Part shown: positions 4,818-61,609 of the stretch, in pieces
Numbering within the stretch: position 1 is the first letter of the stretch
Layout of the letters: every line of letters starts with the position of its first letter
Assembly: GCA_050015515.1 (NCBI GenBank)
Contig: JBEKBG010000002.1
Span: 18,777 to 82,776 of the forward strand
Direction: 5' to 3'
Length of the DNA: 64,000 nucleotides
Origin: Minisyncoccia bacterium
GTDB taxonomy: Bacteria > Patescibacteriota > Minisyncoccia > UBA6257 > 2-01-FULL-56-20
Notes under the pieces: model-generated
What the model was told of the DNA's origin: nothing
The model's input: only the letters and a program-made list of their open reading frames with translations
Databases searched by the model: none
Position numbers and translations under genes: made by a program

Positions 4818-6935
4818 ATGCCCCGACAATATTCCATCGAGAAGACCCGCAACATCGGCATCATCGCGCACATCGATGCGGGTAAGACGACCGTCAGTGA
4901 ACGCGTGCTTTTTTATACCGGCGTTTCGCACAAGATCGGCGAGGTGCACACGGGCGACACGGTGATGGATTGGATGGAGCAGGAACGCGAGCGCGGCATC
5001 ACGATCACGAGCGCCGCGACGACCGCGTTCTGGACGCCCACGTATCACGCCGCGGGTCCCGACCATAAAAACTTCGAGCACCGCATCAACCTGATCGACA
5101 CTCCGGGCCACATTGACTTTACCGTGGAGGTAAAGCGCTCGCTGCGCGTTTTGGACGGCGCGGTCGTCGTATTCGACGGCGTCGCCGGCGTGGAGCCGCA
5201 GTCGGAGACCAACTGGCGCTACGCGGACGATTACAAAGTGCCGCGCATCTGCTTTATCAACAAGCTCGACCGCGCCGGCGCGGACTTTGAAAAGAGCTTC
5301 AAGTCCATCCTTGACCGCCTCACCCAGAACGCGATCCCGATCCAGCTGCCGATCGGCACCGAGGCGAACTTTAGCGCGGTCGTGAACCTGCTCGAGAACA
5401 AGGCGTATACCTTCGAAGGGGAGCACGGCGAGAATATCGTAGAGATCCCGATCCCGGCAGATATGATGGAGACGGTGGCAAAGCATCGCCATGATCTCAT
5501 CGAAAAGATCGCGGAGAACGACGACATCGTGATGGCGAATTACTTGGACGGAAAAGAGATCTCACTCGAGGACCTTCGCAAGACGTTACGCAAAGGCGTC
5601 ATCGCAAACACGATCGTGCCGGTCATGTGTGGTTCGGCGCTCAAGAACAAAGGCGTGCAGTTTATGTTGGATGCCGTCATCGAATACCTGCCGTCGCCGG
5701 CGGACATGCCGCCGATCATGGCGCATGACGAAAAGACGGGCGAAATTGTGCCGGTCAAGCTTACCGACGAAGAGCACTTTGCGGGTTTGGCCTTCAAGAT
5801 CGCAACGGATCCGTTCGTAGGAAACCTGGCGTTCTTCCGCGTCTATGCCGGCGTCCTTAAGAAAGGCTCGTATGTGTATAACTCCACGAAGGGTCAGCAG
5901 GAGCGCGTCAGCCGTATCGTCCGCATGCACGCGAACGACCGCGAAGAAGTGGACGAGGTCTACTCCGGCGAGATCGCCGCAATCGTGGGCTTAAAGGGCA
6001 CCACCACCGGCGACACATTGTGCGATCCGGATCACGCCGTCATTTTGGAAAAGATCACGTTCCCGGAGCCGGTCATCGGGTTGCGCATCGAACCGAAGAC
6101 AAAAGCGGACCAGGAGAAGATGGGCATTGCATTGCATCGCTTGGCGGAAGAAGATCCGACGTTCCGTGTGGAAGGCGATAACGAGACGGGGGAGACGATC
6201 ATCTCCGGCATGGGCGAATTGCACTTGGACATCATCGTGGACCGCATGAAGCGCGAGTTCAACGTCGGCGCAAACGTGGGTCGGCCGCAGGTGGCATACC
6301 GCGAAACGATCACGGCGGAAGCCGAGGGCGAAGGCAAGTACATCAAGCAATCCGGTGGACGCGGTCAGTACGGTCACGTTAAGTTGCGCGTAAAGCCGGG
6401 AGAAAAAGGCTCGGGATTCGTGTTCGTTGACGCAATCAAAGGCGGTTCCATTCCGAAAGAATTCATCAACCCAACAGAGAAAGGCGTCAAAGAAGCGATC
6501 GATAAAGGTATTGTCGCCGGCTATCACATGGTAGACGTGGAGGTAGAGCTCTACGATGGTTCGTTCCACGAGGTGGACTCTTCCGAAGCGTCATTCAAGA
6601 TCGCGGGTTCCATGGCATTCCAGGACGCAGCCAAGAAAGCCAAGCCGGTCATTCTCGAACCGATCATGAAGATCCAGGTCATCGTGCCGGACAACTTCAT
6701 GGGCGAGGTCACGGGCAACGTCAGCGGCAAGCGCGGCGCCATCGAATCGATCGACGATCGTCCGGGTCAGCTCAAGGTGGTGAATGCCAAAGTGCCGTTG
6801 TCCGAATTGTTTGGTTACGCTACCGAGCTTCGCTCGATGTCACAGGGGCGTGGTTCATTTACGATGGAATTTGATCACTACGAGGCGGCACCGCGCAATG
6901 TGACGGAGCAGATTATTGAGGGGAAGAAGCGCTAA
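4818..6935 (+). CDS. fusA: elongation factor G
   Basis: [17 protein letters not shown], full EF-G domain order; 705 aa; about 12-aa insertion after switch region. Confidence 0.97.
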
Positions 6936-7059
6936 AACAATATAGGGCACATGCTTTTGAAAGGACGGCGTTCCAGCCTGCTGGCTGGCCGCCTTGGCTC
7001 TCGCCGCCTTCGCGGCTCCGAGACACCTTTCAAAAGCATGTGCCCTATGTTGTTTTAGC
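6931..7059. repeat. long palindromic element, family 1 (34-bp arms plus conserved about 60-nt core)
   Basis: Arms GCTAAAACAATATAGGGCACATGCTTTTGAAAGG / reverse complement (1 G-T mismatch); 5' arm contains the fusA stop codon; core ACGGCGTTCCAGCCTGCTGGCTGGCCGCCTTGGCTCTCGCCGCCTTCGCGGCTCCGAGAC. Confidence 0.8.
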
Positions 7060-7151
7060 GACCCGTTTCAGAGTGATCTGCGGCACGGTGTTCTTGGGCC
7101 GGAGATGAAGGTAGTCTAGCGAATTAATAAGTGCTAACATGTTAAATATAG

Positions 7152-7883
7152 ATGAAAAAAACACCCTCAAAAATCAAGGTTATTGATCTATTTTGTGGTA
7201 TAGGAGGCTGGATCGGGGGGACGCGACCGGACAACGCTCGCTTCGTTCCGCCACCGGTGGATGACATGAAGCGTTCTCTTTCGGATCTCGAGAGTTTTAT
7301 GTATGCGGAAGATGCGACGCTGACCGTCATTAAGGCGGGTCTTTTGCATGCGCAATTTGAGACCATCCATCCGTTCCTTGATGGTAATGGAAGAACGGGA
7401 CGGATGCTCATCACATTCTATTTGTGGAAAGAAGGGTTTTTGGAAAAGCCTGTTTTGTTTTTATCCTCATATTTTAAAGAACATCAAAAGGTCTATTACG
7501 AAAAGCTTTTGTGCTATCACGAGGGAAAGGTTTCTGAGTGGATTGAATTCTTTTTGGATGGGGTTATTGAGATCGCCAATGAAGCAATCGATATTGTTGG
7601 GAAAATAACGAAGCTTAGAGAAGGGGATACGGAAAAGGTTCAAGGCCTTGGCAAGCGCGCATCGGAAAGTGCAATGAAGGTATTGCCCAAGCTTTATGGC
7701 CAACCGATCGTCAACGTGAGTCTTGTTCAGCGGTGGACCGGTTTTACCCGTGCCGGAGCACAAACCGTCATTGATCGGTTTATCGAGCTTGGCATTCTCT
7801 CCAAGAAGGATAAGGACAAGAAATATGGGCAGTCTTATATTTATAAGAAATACGTGGGCTTATTTTCTGATAGCGCCGCGTAG
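7152..7883 (+). CDS. Fic/DOC family protein (HPFxDGNGR motif) with C-terminal wHTH-like region
   Basis: AQFETIHPFLDGNGRTGRMLITFYL matches the Fic active-site motif HxFx(D/E)GNGRxxR; short N-terminal region suggests possible 5' truncation. Confidence 0.65.
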   Translation: MKKTPSKIKVIDLFCGIGGWIGGTRPDNARFVPPPVDDMKRSLSDLESFMYAEDATLTVIKAGLLHAQFETIHPFLDGNGRTGRMLITFYLWKEGFLEKPVLFLSSYFKEHQKVYYEKLLCYHEGKVSEWIEFFLDGVIEIANEAIDIVGKITKLREGDTEKVQGLGKRASESAMKVLPKLYGQPIVNVSLVQRWTGFTRAGAQTVIDRFIELGILSKKDKDKKYGQSYIYKKYVGLFSDSAA

Positions 7884-7933
7884 TTTGCGTTGGAGCGCAG
7901 CGAGGACTCCTGTGCGGGCGAGGGCGCTTCGCG

Positions 7934-7998
7934 ACCGTGCCGAAATCCAACCCTTCACGGGGAAGATGCTTCTTTATCTCAACTGCCGCGATTGCGGC
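7934..7998 (+). promoter_or_regulatory. partial duplicate of SAM-I riboswitch 3' half plus terminator hairpin
   Basis: GACCGTGCCGAAATCCAACCCTTCACGGGGAAGATGCTTCTTTATCTCAACTGCCGCGATTGCGGCATTTTT is about 90 percent identical to 9318-9372 in the complete riboswitch. Confidence 0.45.
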
Positions 7999-8090
7999 AT
8001 TTTTAGTTCCTTTCTTTGGGGGTATCGTTGTCACTATCCCTGCGGCGATCGTGGGGATCATTTTAAGATTAAAACCTCATTAAAAGAGTT

Positions 8091-8119
8091 TTGACTTTGG
8101 TACTGGGTGGGCGGACAAT
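8091..8119 (+). promoter_or_regulatory. promoter TTGACT-N17-GACAAT, -10 ends 7 nt before ATG 8126 (leaderless)
   Basis: TTGACT 8091-8096; the same AAGTTTTGACTTTGG promoter module recurs at 10441 and 17742. Confidence 0.45.
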
Positions 8120-8125
8120 GATGAT

Positions 8126-8980
8126 ATGGAAAAGAAAAAAAGAGAACAGAATACTCATCCGACGATCTTTGAAGAGAAAGAGGTTCGAAGAACCTGGCAT
8201 GATGAAAAGTGGTATTTCGTTATAGCAGACGTGGTGCAGATTCTTACCGATTCGAAAGATGTTCAGGGGTATATTAAGGATATGAGACGGCGAGATCCGG
8301 AGCTATCCCAAGGGTGGGGGCAAATTGCCACCCCCCTTGGGATTGAGACCGCTGGAGGAAAGCAAAAAATGAATTGTGCTAACTTGGAAGGCATCTTTCG
8401 TATTATTCAATCCATTCCTTCCCCAAAGGCGGAGCCATTTAAGCGCTGGCTCGCCAAGGTCGGCAAGGAAAGGATCGAGGAAATCGCAGACCCCGAATTG
8501 GCGGTAACGCGGACTAAAGAGATTTACGACAAAAAAGGATATCCAAAAGATTGGGTTGATAAGCGCATGCGAGGCATTGCCGTCCGAAATACGCTTACCG
8601 ACGAGTGGAAATCGCGGGGAGCGTCGATGAGCTTTGAGTTTGCGATTTTAACCGACGAGATTTACAAGGCGGCATTTGATAAGACCGCGAAAGAATATAT
8701 GAAGCACAAAGGGTTGGATAAAAAAGCGGGTGATAATTTGCGCGACCATATGGGAGACATTGAATTGATTTTGACGATGCTTGGAGAAGCGACGACGACC
8801 AAGCTCAGCACGGAAAAAGATTCGCATGGATTGGAAGCGTTAAAGAATGATGCGCAAATTGGGGGAGGCGTCGCCGGCAGGACTCGAAAAGATATCGAAC
8901 GGCAAACGGGCAAAAAGGTAATTTCAAATGAGAATTTTAAAAGCCGGAAGCTTTTGAAAGGCAAGGAAATTCGCAAGTAA
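8126..8980 (+). CDS. Bro-N domain protein / phage antirepressor-like
   Basis: FEEKEVRRTWHDEKWYFVIADVVQILTDSKD fits the Bro-N (KilA-N-like) pattern F..E.R....DGE.WF.A.DV..LG; 284 aa. Confidence 0.55.
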   Translation: MEKKKREQNTHPTIFEEKEVRRTWHDEKWYFVIADVVQILTDSKDVQGYIKDMRRRDPELSQGWGQIATPLGIETAGGKQKMNCANLEGIFRIIQSIPSPKAEPFKRWLAKVGKERIEEIADPELAVTRTKEIYDKKGYPKDWVDKRMRGIAVRNTLTDEWKSRGASMSFEFAILTDEIYKAAFDKTAKEYMKHKGLDKKAGDNLRDHMGDIELILTMLGEATTTKLSTEKDSHGLEALKNDAQIGGGVAGRTRKDIERQTGKKVISNENFKSRKLLKGKEIRK

Positions 8981-8981
8981 T

Positions 8982-9251
8982 ATGTCCCAGAAAACCAGGA
9001 TCAAAAAGAATTTAGCGCTGTCGGCAGATTTCAACGCGTATATTTTGAGAAATCCGAAAGTGATGGATAAATTACCCAGGAAGGTCTGTATCGTTTTTGA
9101 AGACAAAAAGGACCAAATTTTTTCGCGGGCAAACTTGAACACGGCAAAAGATATTGCGAATAGCGAGAAATGTTTCGTTGCGAGTAAGTCTGGGTCTCGC
9201 TGGTCTTTGCGTCCGCTCGCCGTATGCTATAATCATCTTACAACCGAATAG
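8982..9251 (+). CDS. hypothetical small protein
   Basis: 89-aa ORF immediately after the Bro-N gene; no recognisable motif. Confidence 0.25.
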   Translation: MSQKTRIKKNLALSADFNAYILRNPKVMDKLPRKVCIVFEDKKDQIFSRANLNTAKDIANSEKCFVASKSGSRWSLRPLAVCYNHLTTE

Positions 9252-9397
9252 CCCATCAAGAGAGTGGAGATGCTAAGGGATCTGGCCCGATGCTCCGCCC
9301 GCAACCGATCGACGATTCGACACGGTGCGAAATCCAACCCTTCACGGGGAAGATGCTTCTTTTAGATCAACTGCCGTGTAGGCGGTTGTTTTTTTGC
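9252..9397 (+). promoter_or_regulatory. SAM-I (S-box) riboswitch with intrinsic terminator, upstream of metK
   Basis: CCATCAAGAGAGTGGAG..GGGATCTGGCCCGATG..CCGCCCGCAACC..GGTGCGAAATCC..GGGGAAGATGC matches S-box conserved blocks (ATCAAGAGAGG, GGGAYTGGCCCGATGA, GCAACC, GGTGC.AATTCC, GAAGATG); terminator CAACTGCC-GTGTA-GGCGGTTG plus T7. Confidence 0.8.
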
Positions 9398-9455
9398 TCT
9401 TTTACAACTTGGGTCGAAAAGCTGGGTTACCAATTAATTAATCAATCAAACTATT

Positions 9456-10409
9456 ATGATAAAAACTGCGGAGTTTGTTTCGCCTCGGCATCCGGATAAA
9501 TTGTGCGACCTCATTGCGGATTCACTGCTCGATGCGTATCTGGCGGGGGATCCAAAGAGCCGCGTGGCGGCGGAGGTGATGGGTGGCCATGGGCACGTCA
9601 CGATCTCGGGGGAAGTGACGAGCGCGGCGTCGGTGGATATTCCAATTGTCGTGCGTTCCGTGCTGGGCTATGATGCGGCGGTGCATGCGTATCTTGTGCG
9701 GCAGAGTCCGGAGATCGCGCAGGGCGTGGATACGGGCGGCGCGGGAGATCAGGGCATTATGATCGGCTATGCCACGCGGGAGACGCCGTCGTTCCTACCG
9801 TTGGAATATGTGTTGGCGCGGGAGCTGTGCCGGAAGTTGTATGCCGTGTATCCGTATGACGGGAAGACGCAGGTAACGGTGGATGGTGATCGCGTGACAT
9901 GCGTCGTCGCAAGCTTTCAGAACGCTCCATCTGCCGCGCTTGAGGCGCTTGTGCGCGCATCCATAGTGGCGGACGAGTATCTGGTGAATCCCGCGGGCGA
10001 ATGGTCGCTCGGCGGCTTCGATGCGGATTCGGGGATCTCCGGGCGCAAGATCGTGATCGATAATTACGGGCCGGAGATCGGCGTGGGCGGCGGATCGTTC
10101 TCGGGCAAGGATCTCACCAAAGTGGATCGGTCGGGCGCATACATCGCGCGGCGCATCGCGGTGGATTACCTGGCGCGATTTTCGTCCGCGCGGGCGGTGC
10201 GTGTAAAGCTCGCGTACGCCATTGGCAAGCCACAGCCCGTCATGGCCGTGGCGGAATTAAGCGAGGGTTCCGGCGGTGTTCGCGTTGTGCCCGTTTCTGA
10301 TTACGACCTTACTCCTTCCGGCATCGCCACGCTTTTGAAGTTCTCTTCCGTGCGCTGGGCCGACACCGCCGCGTGGGGACACTTTGGGAGGGAGTTCAGC
10401 TGGGGATAG
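9456..10409 (+). CDS. metK: S-adenosylmethionine synthetase (short form, 317 aa)
   Basis: HPDK near N-terminus, GAGDQG, GGGSFSGKD..KVDRSGAY, GHFGR motifs. Confidence 0.85.
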   Translation: MIKTAEFVSPRHPDKLCDLIADSLLDAYLAGDPKSRVAAEVMGGHGHVTISGEVTSAASVDIPIVVRSVLGYDAAVHAYLVRQSPEIAQGVDTGGAGDQGIMIGYATRETPSFLPLEYVLARELCRKLYAVYPYDGKTQVTVDGDRVTCVVASFQNAPSAALEALVRASIVADEYLVNPAGEWSLGGFDADSGISGRKIVIDNYGPEIGVGGGSFSGKDLTKVDRSGAYIARRIAVDYLARFSSARAVRVKLAYAIGKPQPVMAVAELSEGSGGVRVVPVSDYDLTPSGIATLLKFSSVRWADTAAWGHFGREFSWG

Positions 10410-10450
10410 TGCCAGCTACTGTCGGAGATTAAAAAAATATTAAAAAAGTT

Positions 10451-10479
10451 TTGACTTTGGCGTTGAATTGCTTAGAATA
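10451..10479 (+). promoter_or_regulatory. consensus promoter TTGACT-N17-TAGAAT for sRNA 10486..10570
   Basis: TTGACT 10451-10456, TAGAAT 10474-10479. Confidence 0.55.
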
Positions 10480-10485
10480 GAAACA

Positions 10486-10570
10486 TGCTCGTAGGGCGTC
10501 GGCAGCTCCTGCCCAATCGGCTCACGCTGGTAGCGAGCATATCAAATAACCGTCACATGGCGGTTTTTTG
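10486..10570 (+). ncRNA. candidate convergent small RNA overlapping the 3' end of 10553..10963
   Basis: About 85-nt transcript with nested stems (ATGCTCG…CGAGCAT), terminator hairpin AACCG-TCACATGG-CGGTT plus TTTTTT (10565-10570); overlaps the last 18 nt of the minus-strand gene. Confidence 0.35.
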
Positions 10571-10963
10571 ATTCTTTGGTTTTGTATCATAAATACTGAA
10601 GAAATGTTTTTCTTTGCCTTCGATTTGCCTTAAGACGATCGTGATCGTGGCATCGCCATATGTCTTGGTCAGTTTCCAGAAATCGGCGTGCGGTTTCTTT
10701 ATCACCGCCATGTCGTGCCGTTTTGAGAAATGGACAGTTTCTCCTTCCCCATGAGAAATTTTTACCTCTTGGCTTTCAATAATTTCTTTCGCATAAGGCA
10801 GGAGACGAAGCCTTCTCGCTTGCTCTCGCAGTGAACGCCGCTTCCCATTTTTCCGCATAAGATGTTGGATTCCGGCATTGGTAAAAGCAACATAGTCGTT
10901 CAGCGCCGAACACCAAACGCGGCCGACATTTTTATAAGAATCTCCTATGTTTTTATCCTCCAT
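10553..10963 (-). CDS. hypothetical protein, paralog of 3749..4174
   Basis: 136-aa basic protein sharing VW..LN..F..AG..HLM.K.GKRR…FW…IVLRQ…KHFFSI with the first copy. Confidence 0.6.
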   Translation of the reverse strand: MEDKNIGDSYKNVGRVWCSALNDYVAFTNAGIQHLMRKNGKRRSLREQARRLRLLPYAKEIIESQEVKISHGEGETVHFSKRHDMAVIKKPHADFWKLTKTYGDATITIVLRQIEGKEKHFFSIYDTKPKNQKTAM

Positions 10964-11028
10964 TCGGCCACGATAGCAGGAAGGGGATTAAGAGAATCTT
11001 AAAAGCGTTATAATAAATACACACATCC

Positions 11029-11496
11029 ATGCACCTCTCCTATATCCTTATCCCGCTTGTTACGATCCTCGTCGCTTTTGTCGGCGGCCGGCTGACGGTG
11101 GCGTCGGTCAAGACGTGGTACGTTGGGTTGCGCAAGCCGTCGTGGACGCCGCCGGGCGCCGTGATCGGTACGGTGTGGACGGTGCTTTATATCCTCGCCG
11201 CGCTATCGGCGCTTATCGTTTGGAATCTTCCTGATGGCGCTTCGGTGCCGGCGATGATTGCCGTGCTCTTTTATTTGAACGCGGCGGTGAATGTTTTCTG
11301 GAGCTATGTGTTCTTTTACCTCCACAAGATGGGGCCGGCGATTTGGGTGTGCCTGTTCCTGGATATCACGATCATCCTGTTGATTCAGTTCATCGCGCCG
11401 ATTTCGCCGCTCGCCGCATGGCTTTTGGTTCCGTACGCGGCCTGGGTGACCTTTGCCTCGTATCTTAACTATCGGGTGTGGGAGATGAATCGGTAG
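11029..11496 (+). CDS. tspO: TspO/MBR family tryptophan-rich sensory protein
   Basis: WYVGLRKPSWTPPGAVIGTVWTVLYIL…LVPYAAWVTFASYLN; five TM helices; 155 aa. Confidence 0.8.
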   Translation: MHLSYILIPLVTILVAFVGGRLTVASVKTWYVGLRKPSWTPPGAVIGTVWTVLYILAALSALIVWNLPDGASVPAMIAVLFYLNAAVNVFWSYVFFYLHKMGPAIWVCLFLDITIILLIQFIAPISPLAAWLLVPYAAWVTFASYLNYRVWEMNR

Positions 11497-11707
11497 GCAT
11501 TTGATGTATTAAAGAAAGAAAAGCGCCGCAATGTCCATTTTACTTATCGAATTGCGGGGCAAGGACGATCAGGGTCTTCAATGACAATGATTTTTATCCC
11601 CAGTTTTGGCCGCCTTTTCCACAGCTTATTCACTTTGTTGGGGTTTTAAGGCGTTTTTTAGCGCTTTTAGGGCTTGACGAGATTTTTACACGGCGTATAT
11701 TTGTAAA

Positions 11708-12329
11708 CAGTAGTTTGAAATTGTTGGATGCGACCAAGAGAAATTCCGAAAGGAATTGTCACGGTTAGGTTCTTACCAAAAGAACAAAACTGTGACCGGA
11801 TCGAAAACATGGAACATGCAAGCGTTCAACCGTCTGACGGATGGAACGTCGAAGTATGATTCAAAGGATCGATCGGGACCTATTGGTCGAACAAAAAACA
11901 GGAAAGCGTGTAGTTCGCTAAAAGCTTCGGCTTAAAGCTGACGAAACGCAAGGTAAGCGGACAGTTCGGGTAACCGGACGAGGAAAGTCGAGTTCTGCAG
12001 GTTAAACCCCTGAGGAACAACGAATCCGCGGAAGATCTTTCCGTTCATCGCGCTGCGGCCCATGGCCACGCGCATCGAGCGAAAAGGATCTTTCCTTTCC
12101 ACCCTTCTGCCTTTGGGGTAGCTGAGTAACCCAAAATTTGATGGCGTTTACGCCATCGGGTTCAGAACGAAAGTTCTGTGTGCGGGAGATTCCTGTTTTT
12201 CCAACTTAAACTCAGGAGTACTTTGAGTGGCAGAAGCTTTGCTTCTTTCGAGAAGCAGATGCTTCTCCACTCAACGTATGACACCCCGGCCGGAGAGCGC
12301 ATTCATGCTCTCCGGCCACTCCTTTTTTT
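11708..12329 (+). ncRNA. ORF-free structured transcript of unknown identity (promoter at 11671-11700, terminator at 12288-12329)
   Basis: Promoter TTGACG-N16-TATATT; about 620 nt with no ORF longer than 68 aa; multiple GNRA/UUCG-capped hairpins (AAATTCC-GAAA-GGAATT, AAGC-UUCG-GCUU); terminator GGCCGGAGAGC-GCATTCAT-GCTCTCCGGCC followed by T7. Confidence 0.3.
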
Positions 12330-12337
12330 ATGGGGAT

Positions 12338-12366
12338 TTGACACGGCCGCCGGTTTCCCATACAAT
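12338..12366 (+). promoter_or_regulatory. tuf promoter TTGACA-N17-TACAAT with about 130-nt leader
   Basis: TTGACA 12338-12343, TACAAT 12361-12366; leader contains hairpin ACAGCT-CTTGA-AGCTGT-TTTTC. Confidence 0.55.
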
Positions 12367-12505
12367 TGCTTGGTAAATCCCTGAAGGGAAAAAAGAAAGT
12401 CACTTAGGTCGATTGGCTATAGATTTTCACAGCTCTTGAAGCTGTTTTTCTTCGGAATAGGGACGCTCACGCAGTATAAAAAATAAACATTAATTTTTAA
12501 AAAAT

Positions 12506-13705
12506 ATGGCAGAAAAAGAAAAGTTCGATCGGTCCAAGCCGCACCTTAACGTAGGTACGATTGGTCACGTCGATCATGGCAAGACCACGTTGACCGCGGC
12601 CATCACTCACGTGTTGTTCATGAAGGGCTGGACAAAAAAAGAAGAGAACGTAAATCAGATCGACAACGCTCCAGAAGAGAAGGCGCGTGGTATCACTATC
12701 GCGTTGCATCACTCGGAATATAATTCGGAGAAGCGCCACTACGCGCACGTGGATGCTCCGGGACACGCAGACTATATTAAGAACATGATCACCGGTGCCG
12801 CCCAGATGGACGGCGCGGTGCTCGTCGTCGCCGCGACCGACGGCCCGATGCCGCAGACGCGCGAGCACATCTTGCTCGCTCACCAGGTCGGTGTGCCGAA
12901 CATCATCGTGTTCCTCAATAAAGTTGATATGGTGGATGATCCGGAATTGATCGATCTCGTGGAATCCGAAGTTCGTGAGCTTCTCACGAAAAATGGATTT
13001 GACGGCGAACATGCGCCGGTCATCCGCGGTTCCGCATTGAAGGCATTGAACGCAACCTCGGCCGATTCTCCGGATGCCAAGCCGATCCTCGATCTCGTGA
13101 AGGCGATGGATGATTACTTCCCAGATCCGGTTCGCGAACTCGACAAGCCGTTTCTTATGCCGATCGAAGACATATTCTCGATTGAAGGCCGTGGCACGGT
13201 CGTCACGGGACGCATTGAGCGCGGCAAGGTGAAGGTGAACGAGGAAGTTGAGGTCGTTGGCCTTAAGCCGACCCAGAAGACCGTCGTCACCGGAATCGAA
13301 ATGTTCAACAAGAGTTTGGACGAAGGCCAGGCAGGCGATAACGCCGGTTTGCTCCTCCGCGGCCTCAAGAAAGAGGACGTGGAGCGCGGACAGGTTTTGG
13401 CCAAGCCGGGCAGCGTGACCCCGCACGCGGAGTTCGAAGGCGAGATCTATGTGCTTTCGAAAGAAGAGGGCGGCCGCCACTCTCCGTTCTTTAAGGGCTA
13501 CAAGCCGCAGTTCTACATCCGCACGACCGACGTGACGGGCGAGGTTACCCTTCCGGAAGGAATGGAAATGGTCATGCCGGGTGATACCGTCAAGATTACC
13601 GTCAAGCTTATCACCCCGGTCGCTTTGGAAGACAAGATGCGTTTCGCCATCCGCGAGGGAGGCAAGACCGTTGGCGCCGGCGTCGTGACCAAAATAATTA
13701 AGTAA
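12506..13705 (+). CDS. tuf: elongation factor Tu
   Basis: [27 protein letters not shown]; 399 aa; AT-rich upstream with no SD. Confidence 0.97.
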
Positions 13706-13816
13706 GCAACATAAAACCGCCTTACGGGGACGGGTCGCGGCCTGCTAGCCGCGCCCTAACGCTCGGCACCTTCGTGCCTCCGCGATTCCCCTTAAAGGCG
13801 GTTTTATATTGCTTAC
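13702..13816. repeat. long palindromic element, family 1 (divergent member) after tuf
   Basis: Arms GTAAGCAACATAAAACCGCCTT / AAGGCGGTTTTATATTGCTTAC include the tuf TAA; core has CGCGGCCTGCTAGCCGCG and GGCACCTTCGTGCC hairpins homologous to the family-1 core with compensatory changes. Confidence 0.75.
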
Positions 13817-13911
13817 GTTTTTAAATTTTGTCACGACGCCGCGCGTCTCCGGTTCTCTTCGGGAGGTGTTTTTGTTCGAGTGTTGAGGAGATACTCGGGC
13901 CTGAGCGACAT

Positions 13912-14316
13912 ATGTGGTATTATAGATTCATGCAAATAATTGGAATTATTGCAGTCGTCCTTCTTGTTGGGATCTTCATTGTATTTATAAAGCAAAGTAC
14001 TAATAACTATTCCAAAATTTCTTTGGTTGGTGCCTTGATCGTATCTTTGGGGTTGATAGCTTCCGGATCTGGTGCATCAAACGTCATTCCGACAAGTTTG
14101 GCATTCGTATTTTTTGCGATCTTAATCATTTCCTTATTGGCTATGGTTATATTCGCCGTCGTGGGTGCAATAACGGATCCAAGAATTTCAAAGGAGGGGA
14201 CGTTGCCTATTATTTGGAATAAGATCATTCCCATAGGAATAGCAGCGGCCCTCTTACTTGTTATAGGACTCTTTCTTTATTTGATATTTATCGTTGGAAC
14301 GGCATTCAGGGGATAG
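13912..14316 (+). CDS. hypothetical multi-TM membrane protein
   Basis: MWYYRFMQIIGIIAVVLLVGIFIVFI… four hydrophobic segments; start chosen at internal ATG 13912. Confidence 0.4.
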   Translation: MWYYRFMQIIGIIAVVLLVGIFIVFIKQSTNNYSKISLVGALIVSLGLIASGSGASNVIPTSLAFVFFAILIISLLAMVIFAVVGAITDPRISKEGTLPIIWNKIIPIGIAAALLLVIGLFLYLIFIVGTAFRG

Positions 14317-14353
14317 CTTGAGTGATTTGAACTTGGTCCAATGCTCCGCATAA

Positions 14354-14379
14354 ACAAAAAACCCGTTGCCGGGTTTTTT
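14354..14379. terminator. bidirectional intrinsic terminator
   Basis: AAAAAAA-CCCG-TTGC-CGGG-TTTTTT. Confidence 0.6.
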
Positions 14380-14721
14380 GCGGATCCAAACATAATGCTG
14401 CGTGGTCCGAGGTGACACCATAACCATGATAACAATCCCAAAATATTCGTCAAAACATTTTTAATCTTTATTTAATGTTTTTATTACCGTTGCGCGGGGG
14501 TGCGAGGACTTGCGCCTCGTGGATCCATAGCGTCACCTCGGACCCAGCACTATGCCACCCCCGCTGCAGTCTATAAAATAGTGCATTAAAACTGTCTAAA
14601 GTCATCTGCGGCTTCACTTTTCGTCACGATGTCGTGTACCTCTATAGAATGCTTTTAAGGTTGATTTTAAAATGGGTTCAAGATAGCTTATAGGTAGTTC
14701 TACGAAACGAAAAGGAGTTAT

Positions 14722-15981
14722 ATGGGACAGAGACCCAGAAACGTTGCTTTGCTGGGATTTGGTACGGTGGGCTCCTGTGTGGCCCGCATTCTGATGGAGC
14801 GTTCGGATCTGTCGGAATATATCCGGTTGACGCATATCTTCAACCGGAAGGTTGAACGGAAACGCGTTGATTGGGCGTCGAAGTCCGTTATTTGGACGGA
14901 GGATATCGATGCGGTCTTCGCATCAAAGCCGGACGTCGTCATTGAACTTGTCGGTGACGTGAATTCCGCGGAAGCGTGGATCCGCAGGGCGTTGCTCCTG
15001 GGGATGGACGTGGTTACCGCCAATAAGGCGCTTCTCGCCACCAAGGCCCCGGAGCTTCTCCGTCTGGCGACCGAGCATCATGCGCGGCTTTCTTTTGAAG
15101 CAGCGGTAGGCGGCGGGATACCGATCATACGGGGTATCCATGAAGGATTGGCGGGGGATACGTTCACCGGCGTGGTCGGCATCCTTAATGGGACATGTAA
15201 TTATATTCTGAGCCGTATGGCCGCGACGGGCGAATCGATGGACCTCGTCCTCAACGAGGCCAAGAGTTTAGGGTTCGCCGAAGCCGATCCAACCGCCGAT
15301 GTGGATGGCCATGATGCCGCTGCGAAGCTCGTACTATTGGTCGGTGTCTCGTTCAAACGGCATCTGCCGCTGGCCCACGTCAATCCCCGGTCTATCAGGG
15401 GAGTGGCCGATGTGGATTTCAAATACGCCCGCGAACTTGGATATACCATCCGTCAGCTGTCGTGTGTACAAAAACAAGAAGATGGATTTTGTGCCTTCGT
15501 GGGTCCGGCATTGGTCTCGCTCGCTTCCGCTTTTGCGGGGAACGAGGGGGCCAATAATCTGGTCACGACGATGGGTGCGCACGGCGGTAGAAATAATTTC
15601 CAAGGTGCCGGCGCGGGAGGAGATCCGACCGCGGTAGCGGTCGTATCCGATCTGATCGCGTTATTGCGTAACGGCCAAAACGTTCCGGAAGAAGATCTCT
15701 GGAACCCGGGATGCATCATCGCTTCGCCGTCGCGGGAGTACTATCTCCGCTTTGTGGTAAAGGATCGGCCCGGTATCGTTGCGGCCATCACCTCTGCGCT
15801 TTCAACACAAAGCATCAACATCGGCGCAGTCGTCCAATTGCCGGGATATCCGAAAGACCATCTGTCGTTCGTCGTAACGGTCGAGGCATGCGAGGAGAAT
15901 ACACTCGAGAGAGCGCTGGAGGAAATCGGCACAATGGATTTCCACGCACAAACGCCACTCGTGCTTCCGATCTGGAATTGA
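14722..15981 (+). CDS. hom: homoserine dehydrogenase
   Basis: N-terminal NAD-binding LLGFGTVGS, central catalytic domain (VVTANKALLAT), C-terminal ACT domain; AAGGAG 6 nt upstream. Confidence 0.9.
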   Translation: MGQRPRNVALLGFGTVGSCVARILMERSDLSEYIRLTHIFNRKVERKRVDWASKSVIWTEDIDAVFASKPDVVIELVGDVNSAEAWIRRALLLGMDVVTANKALLATKAPELLRLATEHHARLSFEAAVGGGIPIIRGIHEGLAGDTFTGVVGILNGTCNYILSRMAATGESMDLVLNEAKSLGFAEADPTADVDGHDAAAKLVLLVGVSFKRHLPLAHVNPRSIRGVADVDFKYARELGYTIRQLSCVQKQEDGFCAFVGPALVSLASAFAGNEGANNLVTTMGAHGGRNNFQGAGAGGDPTAVAVVSDLIALLRNGQNVPEEDLWNPGCIIASPSREYYLRFVVKDRPGIVAAITSALSTQSINIGAVVQLPGYPKDHLSFVVTVEACEENTLERALEEIGTMDFHAQTPLVLPIWN

Positions 15982-16102
15982 TGATGAACACGGCCCCGCG
16001 CGGAGAACTAACATTCCGCGCGGGGTTTTTCTTTTATGGATATCCCAATAAACCACGGGTTTGACACTTTCATGAAGTTTGCTATACTTTCTTGGTACTC
16101 AA

Positions 16103-16426
16103 ATGGCCAAAACAGACGTTCCCCAAAAACTGCGCTTGCGCATAAAGTCCTACGATCACAAACTGATCGACAATTCGGCACGCCAGATCATCGAGGCCGC
16201 CGAGCGGAACGATGCGAAAGTGACGGGGCCGATCCCGCTTCCCACGGAAGTAAAGCATTACACCGTCAACCGTTCGACCTTTGTCCACAAGGACGCTCGC
16301 GAGCAGTTCGAGCTCCGCATTCATAAGCGCCTCGTCGAAATATTGAATCCCAACCAGAAAATCATCGAATCACTTTCGAACCTGAATCTTCCTGCGGGCG
16401 TGGATATAGAAATAAAGATGGTTTAA
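16103..16426 (+). CDS. rpsJ: 30S ribosomal protein S10
   Basis: [23 protein letters not shown]…VTGPIPLPT; separated from rplC by a 3.9-kb insertion. Confidence 0.9.
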
Positions 16427-44616: not shown

Positions 44617-45054
44617 GCTGGTCATCCAGACGGTCGCTGTGGCGGTGCGAGCCCTTTAAAAGGCGTCACCCGCGCAGAGGAAAATCCGGACACTCTCTTT
44701 CTGCTCCGCGCGCAAGCGTTGTGTGCGGGAAGATAAAAAGGTAGCGGCTAACGGCCGCCGTTCGTAAGAATAGAGGTGCGAGCAGTGACGTCCACGCCGG
44801 AAACGGCGTGGAGGACCCCATCCCGAGCTCGATGGTCCAATTCCGCCATAGGGACAACAAAGCGGAAGTGAAACGGCAAAATCCTTACCGAGTGCAAGGC
44901 CGTGCTCTGCGATCATTGCGCAAGCGATCGTCGCAGAGAGTGCCGCAACGAGCCCGCGAGCGATCAAGGGCCCAGATAAATGACCGTCCATCGGCACCGC
45001 GTTTGTAAAAGCGCGCACCGGTCGACAGAATCCGGTTTACGGGTTGCCAGCACC
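44617..45054 (+). ncRNA. rnpB: RNase P RNA (bacterial type)
   Basis: P4 strands GAGGAAAAUCCGGAC (around 44670) and ACAGAAUCCGGUUUAC (45026-45041) pair as AAA[U]CCGG/CCGGUUU with the conserved bulged U; P1 GCUGGU/GCCAGC closes the ends; own promoter and terminator. Confidence 0.7.
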
Positions 45055-56587: not shown

Positions 56588-58140
<1,553 letters not shown>

Positions 58141-58271
58141 TAATCTATAAAATTCGTTTTTATAGAGTCGAACTTTCTTCTCTTTGGCCAGCGAATCGAT
58201 CGCAGGCGAAAGCGAGGGAGGTAATTGGGACAACTAAAAAGCTCTTTGTATAAATATGGTAGAATATATCT

Positions 58272-59079: not shown

Positions 59080-59160
59080 GCGCGGGTGGCGAAATGGCAG
59101 ACGCACTACCTTGAGGTGGTAGCGCCGAAAGGCGTGGAGGTTCGACTCCTCTCCCGCGCA
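59080..59160 (+). tRNA. tRNA-Leu (anticodon GAG), type II with long variable arm, no encoded CCA
   Basis: GCGCGGG-TG-GCG-AAATGGCAGA-CGC-A-CTACC-TTGAGGT-GGTAG-CGCCGAAAGGCGT-GGAGG-TTCGACT-CCTCT-CCCGCGC-A. Confidence 0.85.
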
Positions 59161-59578: not shown

Positions 59579-60160
59579 ATGGAAACCGAGATCGAAGCAA
59601 AATTTTTGGACATCGATCCTATCGCAGTGCGCGCGAAGTTAAAAGCGCTTGGCGCGGCGCTCATCTATCCCGAAGTGTTGATGAAACGAAAAGTGTTCGA
59701 TCATCCGACGAACAAGCAAAGCGATTGGCTCCGAGTGCGCGATGAAGGGGATAAGATCACGATGAGCTATAAGAAGGTCATCGATCGGACGGTGCATGGC
59801 ACCAAAGAGATAACCATAAAAGTTTCCAATTTTGATGATGCGTGCGCGATCCTCTTGGCGGCACAGCTTCGGCAGGCGGCGTATCAAGAAACGCGTCGGG
59901 AAACATGGCGGTTGGATGAAACGGAGATCATGATAGACACGTGGCCGTGGATACCGACCTTTGTAGAGATCGAAGCGCCTTCCGAAGAAAAGTTAAAAGC
60001 TGCGGCAAGAAAATTGGGATTGCAATGGGGTGATGCGCTCTATGGCAGTGTGGAACCGGCATACCAAAAATATTACGACGTGACCGAAAAAGAAATCGAT
60101 AGCTGGCCGGAGATAGTTTTTGGCCCCGTTCCCGACTGGCTCCTCCGGCGGAAAAAATGA
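59579..60160 (+). CDS. CYTH-domain protein (triphosphate tunnel metalloenzyme / class IV adenylyl cyclase-like)
   Basis: N-terminal EIEAKF (ExExK) motif; 193 aa. Confidence 0.75.
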   Translation: METEIEAKFLDIDPIAVRAKLKALGAALIYPEVLMKRKVFDHPTNKQSDWLRVRDEGDKITMSYKKVIDRTVHGTKEITIKVSNFDDACAILLAAQLRQAAYQETRRETWRLDETEIMIDTWPWIPTFVEIEAPSEEKLKAAARKLGLQWGDALYGSVEPAYQKYYDVTEKEIDSWPEIVFGPVPDWLLRRKK

Positions 60161-60173
60161 TTTGATGCGATCT

Positions 60174-60302
60174 CCAGAAAAGGACAAGCCCAGTACATTC
60201 TTTTGAGGGTATGCCGGAGCCGCGAAGGCGGCGAGGCGTAGCGATTTTTCAGTAGAAAAATACGCGACCCTCAAAAGAATGTACTGGGCTTGTCCTTTTC
60301 TG
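60174..60302. repeat. long palindromic element, family 1 (inverted core orientation)
   Basis: 35-bp perfect arms CCAGAAAAGGACAAGCCCAGTACATTCTTTTGAGGG / reverse complement; core reverse complement contains CTCGCCGCCTTCGCGGCTCCGGC. Confidence 0.8.
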
Positions 60303-60325
60303 ATGGTCTGTTATAATCATTTCCA

Positions 60326-61609
60326 ATGAGGCGCCATCCAGGCCTATTTTTATCCTTTATCGTCATCCTCGCTATTATCGCGGGGGTTTTCGTGTATCCG
60401 AAAGGCGTGGGCGAAAAAGCGGAGCCGTGGAAGCTCGGGCTTGATCTTGTGGGCGGCAGCCATTTAGTCTATCAGATCGACCTTTCAAACGTCTCGTCGA
60501 CCGACCAGGCTTCGGTGGTTTCCGGTCTGCGTGACGTGATCGAGAAGCGCGTCAACCTGTTCGGCGTCAGCGAGCCGGATATTTATACCTCACAAAGCGG
60601 CAATCAAGCCCAGCTTTTTGTGGATCTCGCCGGCATCAGCAATGTGAGCGACGCGATCAATGAGATCGGGCAGACGCCGCTCTTGCAATTTGAAACGGTG
60701 GTCCAACCTATCGGATCGACCGGATCGAGCACGCTGTTGGATACGCAATCATCCAGCACGCAATATATTCCGACAAACCTGACCGGGCAGTATGTTACCG
60801 GCGCGCAGCTGACGTTTGATTCAACGACGAACGCGCCGCAGGTTTCGATCTCTTTCAATAGCCAGGGTGCTACGCTTTTCCAGCAGATCACGGCGGCGAA
60901 CGTCGGCAAGCCGCTGGCGATATTCCTTGATGGACAGCTTATTGAGGCGCCGACGGTGGAGCAGGCGATCTCCGGCGGACAAGCGGTCATCAGTGGGGGA
61001 TTCACGGTCGCGACCGCACAGCAACTGGTGGAACGGTTCAACGCCGGCGCGCTTCCTGCGCCGATCACGCTCGTCAGCCAGCAAACGATCAGCCCCACAC
61101 TCGGGAGCAATTCATTGAAGCAATTGATCATTGCCGGCATCATCGGCACCTTGCTTGTGATGCTCTTTATGATCTTCTATTACCGCCTGCTCGGTATCTT
61201 TGCCGCGCTTGCACTCATAATCTACATTGCGCTCACCCTCGGCGTCTTCAAGCTGATCTCTGTCACCCTGAGCCTCGCCGGCCTTGCGGGCTTCATTCTC
61301 ACCATTGGCATGGCGGTGGACGCGAACGTGCTTATTTTTGAACGCGTCAGAGAAGAGCTCAAACGGGGATTGCCAAAGTCTTCCGCCATCGAGGAAGGGT
61401 TCCGGCGTGCATGGCCTTCCATCCGCGACTCGAACAGCTCCACCATCATCACCGCGATCATCCTTTACTTCTTTACCTCCAGCTTTGTGCAGGGTTTCGC
61501 GCTCACGCTCGGCATTGGAACGATCGTCAGCCTCTTCAGCGCAATCACCACCACACGCCTCTTCCTGCGTTTCTTCTTGAAAGACGATAAAGTACCCGCC
61601 AAAGTATAA
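60326..61609 (+). CDS. secD: protein translocase subunit SecD
   Basis: N-terminal TM, periplasmic domain, C-terminal 5 to 6 TM bundle; 427 aa. Confidence 0.9.
   Translation: MRRHPGLFLSFIVILAIIAGVFVYPKGVGEKAEPWKLGLDLVGGSHLVYQIDLSNVSSTDQASVVSGLRDVIEKRVNLFGVSEPDIYTSQSGNQAQLFVDLAGISNVSDAINEIGQTPLLQFETVVQPIGSTGSSTLLDTQSSSTQYIPTNLTGQYVTGAQLTFDSTTNAPQVSISFNSQGATLFQQITAANVGKPLAIFLDGQLIEAPTVEQAISGGQAVISGGFTVATAQQLVERFNAGALPAPITLVSQQTISPTLGSNSLKQLIIAGIIGTLLVMLFMIFYYRLLGIFAALALIIYIALTLGVFKLISVTLSLAGLAGFILTIGMAVDANVLIFERVREELKRGLPKSSAIEEGFRRAWPSIRDSNSSTIITAIILYFFTSSFVQGFALTLGIGTIVSLFSAITTTRLFLRFFLKDDKVPAKV

Follow-up and report, generated by a model that had tools for sequence, protein, structure and literature searches.

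A probable gene for a large structured RNA upstream of tuf in a small clade of Minisyncoccia

The tuf-upstream locus and its homologues

The 64-kb stretch of a Minisyncoccia contig (JBEKBG010000002.1) analyzed here, hereinafter the window, contains within its fusA-tuf-rpsJ interval an intergenic segment of about 620 nucleotides (nt) situated between the genes for TspO (11029-11496) and EF-Tu (tuf, 12506-13705). Minisyncoccia belong to the Patescibacteria or Candidate Phyla Radiation (CPR), and the genes preceding the segment are, in order, fusA (4818-6935), those for Fic, Bro-N and DUF5647 proteins and for a short MetK, a 136-aa LPD3-like gene on the minus strand and the TspO gene. A first-pass annotation of the window had described the segment as lying between a promoter and a terminator and free of open reading frames (ORFs), and had suggested a lineage-specific large non-coding RNA (ncRNA), a 6S-like RNA or a degenerate intron. 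The first of these suggestions is the one borne out: homologues of the segment keep the promoter, the terminator and the predicted structure, show compensatory changes in paired positions, diverge slowly and display no coding signal. We posit that the segment is probably a gene of its own, encoding a large structured ncRNA that belongs to no family described so far and is found in a small Minisyncoccia clade. Few bacterial ncRNAs are known that exceed 500 nt and have a complex conserved fold, and hardly anything is known of the ncRNAs of CPR bacteria, whose genomes of about 1 Mb have little spare DNA. The large RNAs that have been studied, namely RNase P, group II introns, OLE, ROOL and GOLLD, yielded catalysis or unexpected architectures.

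Homologues were sought with one exact motif each in two kinds of collections, the 18-mer GGAAGATCTTTCCGTTCA in metagenomes and CGGACGAGGAAAGTCGAG in genomes, and more distant relatives may exist. Among the 71 metagenomic loci matching the 18-mer, 4 are true homologues, with the rest representing an unrelated coding gene family or chance; the 13 matches of CGGACGAGGAAAGTCGAG on genome contigs of unrelated phyla were rejected as chance, showing neither extended similarity nor an Rfam family. A 100% identical copy of the RNA is present on contigs from three other samples, and diverged copies occur at L014, L029, L084 and L034 (the last three of these via the metagenome scan) and at L099. With L029 counted as equal to L014, this gives five distinct variants, the window and four from metagenome contigs of close Minisyncoccia relatives, which are 84-95% identical. 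A cluster look-up of the spurious ORFs of the segment yielded no further variants, three motif scans of viral-contig collections gave no match, and the phage and plasmid collections gave only chance matches of about 30-55 nt. As far as could be searched, the RNA appears to be confined to a small clade of Minisyncoccia.

Four variants have a known downstream flank, and in each of them the RNA directly precedes the tuf promoter (L034 ends at a contig edge); its upstream neighbor is TspO in the window, L084 and L099, MetK in L014 and a 127-aa ORF in L034. There is one copy per contig, and a covariance model (R1) of the junction and long hairpin described below, searched over the window and the relatives' loci, found no diverged extra copy, be it in RNA-lacking loci or in other parts of the window. 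The RNA is missing from eight related lineages (L005, L006, L007, L008/9, L010, L011/12, L100 and L101/2), among them the first to be inspected, L005-L007 upstream of tuf and L008-L012 downstream of TspO. They have instead a short TspO-tuf spacer, with TspO ending about 190 nt before tuf, or other cargo at the site, such as YgjP in L010 and a 132-aa ORF in L101. TspO and tuf are thus neighbors also where the RNA is absent, and the RNA module amounts to about 800 nt of DNA inserted or deleted just ahead of the tuf promoter. Carriers and the eight non-carriers are interleaved on a neighbor-joining tree of tuf, and L100 lacks the RNA although its EF-Tu differs from that of L084 by 3 residues. The RNA is an accessory gene, present in some close relatives and absent from others.

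The segment is preceded on the + strand by a sigma-70-like promoter (-35 TTGACG, 16-nt spacer, -10 TATATT; 11674..11701) with 10/12 consensus matches, both hexamers of which are invariant in 5/5 variants and which would place the start site near 11707-11709. At its other end is an intrinsic terminator (12288..12329, +) made of a 12-bp stem (12288-12317) with 9 G-C pairs, a 6-nt loop and a T-run extending to 12329; in L014 two pairs of this stem are replaced in compensatory fashion (C-G to U-A and G-C to A-U), thereby keeping the pairing. The promoter, terminator, fold and alignment together predict a primary transcript of about 620 nt (11708..12329, +), which would reach about 670 nt in the other four variants owing to a 49-nt extension of a 3′ hairpin. 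As the first-pass annotation had held, a promoter and a terminator bracket the segment, and the longest ORF touching it measures only 68 aa.

Upstream of the RNA promoter, a conserved non-coding block of about 150 nt (11521..11673, +) aligns in 5/5 RNA-bearing loci and accompanies the RNA although the upstream gene varies (TspO, MetK or the 127-aa ORF). It holds a hairpin or inverted repeat at 11523-11560, and its complementarity to the RNA is not above that of shuffles. Inside this block we also noted a candidate micro-ORF of 20-22 codons (11581/11587-11649, +) encoding the hydrophobic product M(I/V)IFIPSFG(R/H)LFH(S/T)LFTLLGF, which is equal in length in 5/5 loci (window, L014, L084, L034 and L099) and ends with TAA, TAG or TGA at the same position. 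Its substitutions are distributed 3:3:5 by codon position, with 6 non-synonymous and 4 synonymous changes, a pattern that does not prove coding.

The right boundary of the RNA is marked by the tuf promoter and 5′ leader, which lie outside it (12338..12505, +). The promoter (TTGACA-17-TACAAT, 12338-12366) is near-consensus with 11/12 matches, and it is kept together with the conserved leader of about 140 nt in relatives both with and without the RNA. As a separate observation, the leader (12367-12505, +; also in L008, L010, L011 and L101) holds a terminator-like hairpin with a T-run at 12429-12445, and the tuf ATG is not preceded by a Shine-Dalgarno sequence; this 5′ leader may be an attenuator or an autoregulatory leader in its own right.

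Predicted fold, sequence constraint and coding potential

The + strand of the segment has a minimum free energy of -259.5 kcal/mol as against -184.7 +/- 5.2 kcal/mol for dinucleotide shuffles (z = -14.4), with the minus strand reaching z = -9.1. Once corrected for GC content, it is the most stable of the 102 625-nt tiles in the window (residual of about -61 kcal/mol, 3.8 standard deviations). The second most stable tile by this measure (60001-60625, residual -54 kcal/mol) runs from the last part of one ORF across a 165-nt gap into the following ORF.

A consensus structure was obtained with RNAalifold from the alignment of the five variants. It predicts two multi-helix domains, each with its own long-range closing helix, both lying inside a further helix and followed by a 3′ hairpin and the terminator; all are on the + strand. 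The enclosing long-range helix H2 (11723-11728 with 12200-12205, spanning 11723..12205) is invariant and 100% paired, while its outer extension H1 (11713-11718 with 12206-12211) is 89.7% paired and, having mismatches in L084 and L034, is unsupported there. Domain A (11731..11889, from fold and alignment) is closed by CGACCAAGAG/CUAUUGGUCG and contains a GNRA hairpin (11742-11757), a nested hairpin (11760-11794) and a long irregular arm (11796-11877); the GAAA loop of this domain becomes GGAA in L034.

Domain B (11895..12199) is closed by the 10-bp long-range helix H9 (AAAACAGGAA/UUCCUGUUUU), whose strands form a perfect 11-nt inverted repeat 285 nt apart and which is 100% paired in the five variants despite one compensatory C-G to U-A change and two G-U changes. 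Within it, a three-way junction region (11957..12029) comprises an invariant GUAA hairpin (11964-11979), the purine-rich joiner GAGGAAAG (11980-11987) and H17 (11993-12016), in which four pairs are changed on both sides (e.g., GUUCU/GGAAC to GUCUC/GAGAC). This is followed by the long hairpin H18/H19 (12030..12095), of which the 5′ strand and part of the apex fall in a stretch identical in 5/5 variants (12026-12052), the source of the 18-mer scan motif. Next comes a sub-domain of three hairpins (12103..12188), located at 12113-12134, 12135-12162 (13 bp) and 12163-12178 (GNRA-capped). The 12-nt loop GUAGCUGAGUAA of the first (12118-12129) is invariant, H20 and H23 each show one compensatory pair and several G-U changes, and the GAAA loop of the sub-domain becomes GCAA in L014. 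The 3′ hairpin (12215..12282) has a UUCG cap in the window, with its helices H25 and H26 being 99.5% and 95.8% paired. In the other four variants it carries the 49-nt apical extension, capped by GAAA, GCAA or AAAA (the last in L099), which the window copy has lost, as expected of a dispensable peripheral arm. The tetraloop-capped hairpins reported earlier are thus present, with GAAA, GUAA and UUCG loops; a survey of the unpaired conserved segments for pseudoknots gave only chance-level candidates, such as UUCGGCU with AGUCGAG.

Standard pairs make up 96.4% of the 1136 pair cells in the five-sequence alignment. Changes on both sides affect 11 pairs, as compared to 1-3 when the partners are slid by 1-3 columns, in a structure derived from these same five sequences, and the covariation score is 0.103 as against at most 0.045 in the controls, with 0/500 shuffles reaching the observed values. 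The double changes sit, among other places, in H9, H17 (four pairs), helices 12103-12188 and 12135-12162, and the terminator. Among the predicted pairs G-U cells outnumber A-C cells by 134 to 24 (about 5:1), an excess which favors the + strand and an RNA rather than a DNA element. GNRA loops that vary mostly remain GNRA (GAAA to GGAA once and GAAA to GCAA twice), and the GUAA and UUCG loops are invariant.

The paired columns are more conserved than the unpaired ones. In the same genome pairs in which the RNA is 84-95% identical, the 4-fold degenerate sites of tuf and TspO are only 61-81% identical, so that the RNA diverges 2-4 times less than the synonymous sites of its flanking genes. Purifying selection on the RNA sequence is therefore strongly indicated.

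The first-pass annotation had named a frameshifted pseudogene as the finding that would overturn its view, and the translated searches for one were negative. Pfam gives no match in the six-frame translation of the segment, and a concatenated ORF query found no homologue among 5.8 billion proteins, in a search that senses short pieces poorly and also missed a called 47-aa ORF. The 68-aa ORF (12178-12384) crosses the terminator, each of the six frames contains 5-8 stops, and the variable sites are distributed 50/46/40 by codon phase with no periodicity. Moreover, the open frames differ among the variants, with 1-nt indels breaking the longest minus-strand ORF. Taken together, these observations strongly indicate that the segment is not translated.

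Interpretation and competing explanations

A scan of the whole window against Rfam 15 at gathering scores found nothing in the RNA segment. When the segment (11400-12600) and the four homologous loci were searched at E<=10, the scope of all the model comparisons below, only noise emerged (e.g., a microRNA hairpin model and CRISPR repeat models). The earlier exclusion of a transfer-messenger RNA (tmRNA), which has a tRNA-like domain made by its two ends and a reading frame for the tag peptide, holds, with neither ARAGORN, run on the window, nor the tmRNA models of Rfam detecting one, and so does that of a signal recognition particle (SRP) RNA, characterized by the GGAA/AGCA motif of its domain IV, whose models are not matched. 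The two other identities that had been entertained are not supported. The 6S models are unmatched, and 6S RNA is rod-like with a central bubble, whereas the present RNA is branched, multi-domain and three times as long. Likewise, group I and group II intron models give no match, and introns have a catalytic core (P7 with its G-binding site, or domain V) and are inserted within a host gene with splice boundaries, while this RNA is intergenic with its own promoter and terminator. Ribozyme and retroelement RNA models are equally silent.

The observation that a box in the segment resembles the 5′ strand of the RNase P helix P4 with no matching 3′ strand was correct (GAGGAAAGUCGAG at 11980-11992, with the core GAGGAAAGUC at 11980-11989). 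Type A RNase P RNA and our RNA both have a purine-rich joiner of the GAGGAAAGUC kind and peripheral helices with GNRA caps, but the segment lacks the 3′ strand of P4 and any RNase P match, and the box varies, with its first G being A in L084 and L034, where it reads AAGGAAAGUC/U. The better candidate, which the first-pass annotation had placed at 44617, proves to be a type A RNase P RNA matching the full RF00010 model (44618-45054, +; 68.6 bits, E = 1.9e-20), and with a genuine RNase P RNA there, the box in the segment can be taken as a resemblance only. The match at 44618-45054 falls below the RF00010 gathering score of 100, and standard annotation would therefore miss this divergent RNase P RNA; a promoter-like TTGTCA...TACAAT lies just upstream of it.

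In size and complexity the RNA is on a par with OLE, ROOL and GOLLD, but it belongs to none of these families, their models being unmatched and their genomic hallmarks absent. OLE RNA (ornate, large, extremophilic) is about 610 nt long and found in Firmicutes (PMC3413148, PMC12286853). It is alike in length, in its branched multi-domain fold with many conserved hairpins, in being a stand-alone transcription unit and in being a lineage-restricted accessory RNA of non-essential appearance. However, our RNA comes from another phylum and has no adjoining gene for an OLE-associated membrane protein, its neighbors being TspO, MetK or the 127-aa ORF, and tuf; furthermore, OLE is broadly conserved in its host group while this RNA is patchy among near-identical relatives. 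ROOL (about 580 nt) and GOLLD (more than 800 nt) are phage- or prophage-encoded RNAs that often sit beside tRNA islands and form RNA-only nanocages (PMC12286853). With these it shares a large, ornate and patchy accessory character and a setting amid mobile-island-type genes (Bro-N, Fic and toxin-antitoxin). Yet it lies outside recognizable phage DNA, with no phage structural genes nearby although the island-type Bro-N and Fic are, it has no counterpart in phage and viral collections, and ARAGORN finds no tRNA in the window within about 10 kb of it. Being longer than 500 nt, non-coding and an independent unit whose transcription is read from its signals, the RNA would fall, as a matter of description and not of homology, among the large ornate ncRNAs, a loosely defined kind.

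The sequence strongly indicates that transcription starts near 11708 from the sigma-70-type promoter and ends at about 12329 at the intrinsic terminator, and that the + strand RNA folds into the two multi-helix domains held within long-range helices, with the 3′ hairpin and the GNRA- and UUCG-capped arms. We propose that it would then act in trans as a compact folded particle, be it a scaffold, the core of a protein-binding ribonucleoprotein (RNP) or a self-assembling RNA, with the GNRA loops docking into helices to build tertiary or quaternary structure, and would serve as neither an antisense regulator nor a leader of tuf. A particle of this kind, binding a partner or itself, is modeled on OLE, ROOL and GOLLD (PMC12286853, PMC3413148) and suggested by the branched fold, the GNRA caps, the identical stretch 12026-12052 and the invariant GUAGCUGAGUAA loop. 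A bolder version, conceivable but less likely, is that it represents a new CPR class of large ornate RNA operating in higher-order RNA or RNP assembly, perhaps with the hydrophobic micro-peptide encoded upstream, and gained and lost at a hot spot upstream of tuf. A promoter-to-terminator module of about 0.8 kb under purifying selection in small genomes would be a cheap experimental target, and the RNA can serve as a marker of the movement of accessory RNA genes in an otherwise conserved cluster of translation genes. Its general importance is limited by its narrow distribution, and its novelty is tempered by the modest covariation.

Several points weigh against our reading. There are only five variants with at most about 16% divergence, most pairs are invariant and the power is too low for R-scape, while the consensus structure was taken from the very sequences used to assess covariation. 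Disruptive changes occur in H1, H7, H13, parts of H17 and the base of H18, with the affected positions including the outermost helix, 11810-11863, 11951-11953/12099-12101 and the base of the long hairpin. The transcription unit is deduced from conserved signals, and the proposed particle or scaffold mode of action from analogy and the GNRA loops. The patchy distribution shows the RNA to be dispensable, and no partner protein is identifiable: the only constant neighbor is tuf, whose promoter and leader are alike in relatives with and without the RNA.

The main rival explanation, which we regard as unlikely, is a selfish or decayed mobile RNA element that inserted beside the tuf promoter and whose structure serves its own propagation and not the host; a mobile RNA-gene cassette and the ORF-less remains of an intron-like element or a retroelement would be examples. 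The behavior of the roughly 800-nt module as an insertion or deletion, given the spacing of about 190 nt between TspO and tuf elsewhere, fits this, as do its patchiness in very close relatives (L100 versus L084), the other cargo at the site (YgjP in L010 and the 132-aa ORF in L101) and the island-type neighbors Fic, Bro-N, PemK and zeta toxin. However, the element is single-copy on each contig and occupies one and the same locus in every variant with a known downstream flank, and no second copy turns up in the window or the relatives' loci. The module has no terminal inverted repeats, and a direct repeat of the tuf promoter flanking it, tried as an insertion scar, was not significant (215/2000 shuffles score as high). 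No reverse transcriptase, transposase or integrase gene adjoins it, no intron, ribozyme or retroelement RNA model matches it, and it was not found in the viral-contig, phage and plasmid collections. Furthermore, it has a conserved promoter and terminator of its own, which would not be retained by a passive remnant.

A long cis-acting leader or insulator of tuf, in which read-through from 11674 past a bypassed terminator forms a regulatory attenuator, strikes us as decidedly improbable. It would account for the position of the RNA, which directly precedes tuf in the same orientation in the four variants with known downstream flank, and its terminal terminator could in principle be regulated. 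Against this, tuf has its own 11/12 promoter and leader of about 140 nt, which RNA-lacking relatives show in identical arrangement. The terminator, with its 12-bp stem, 9 G-C pairs and long T-run, is strong and has no evident alternative anti-terminator pairing, and 620 nt far exceeds known leaders.

A non-functional hairpin-rich spacer, conserved by recent common ancestry, would suit the close relationship of the variants and the pairs that never vary, but we consider it highly improbable. Across these genome pairs the flanking genes differ 2-4 times more at their synonymous sites, the variants have kept the promoter and the terminator, compensatory and G-U-preserving changes are more frequent than in the controls, and the GNRA loops mostly stay GNRA. 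We attach hardly any weight to a highly divergent form of a known RNA (RNase P, tmRNA, SRP or 6S, or else OLE, ROOL, GOLLD or HEARO), despite the GAGGAAAGUC box and the OLE- and ROOL-like size and ornateness: neither Rfam nor ARAGORN recognizes one, an RNase P RNA exists elsewhere, the box is not invariant, and an essential housekeeping RNA could not be missing from close relatives. Equally far-fetched is a frameshifted pseudogene or a set of small-protein genes, for although gene callers annotated short hypothetical ORFs in the segment (two of 64 and 69 aa in L014 and a minus-strand one of 47 aa in L001), these shift strand and place among the variants, and there is neither 3-periodicity nor, within the sensitivity of the searches described above, a protein match, with 1-nt indels falling inside the longest ORFs.

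Other features of the window and related contigs

Beyond the RNA itself, the fusA-tuf and tuf-rpsJ intervals constitute a hot spot of variable cargo among close relatives (window 4818-16400; L005-L012 and L099-L101), with the cargo including Fic/Doc, Bro-N, DUF5647, PemK, zeta toxin, PhdYeFM, an SLFN-like helicase, YgjP, a HAD hydrolase and Sua5. In L006, two related palindromic elements of about 100 nt (2043-2150 and 5205-5310; ACCCTTTCGGG...CCCGAAAGGGT type) lie directly after fusA and tuf, and could be miniature repeat elements or elaborate terminators.

The metK gene of the window (9456-10409) has no riboswitch at the gathering score. In L014, a tRNA (955-1027) and an S-adenosylmethionine (SAM) riboswitch (1075-1184; RF00162, 45.6 bits, barely above the cut-off) lie ahead of a small operon whose last gene is metK. 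Toward the end of the window, the 16S rRNA gene (56603-58141) is followed in the remaining 5.8 kb by neither a 23S rRNA nor a tRNA-Ile/Ala gene, the only tRNA there being a tRNA-Leu at 59080, and the rRNA genes thus appear to be unlinked.
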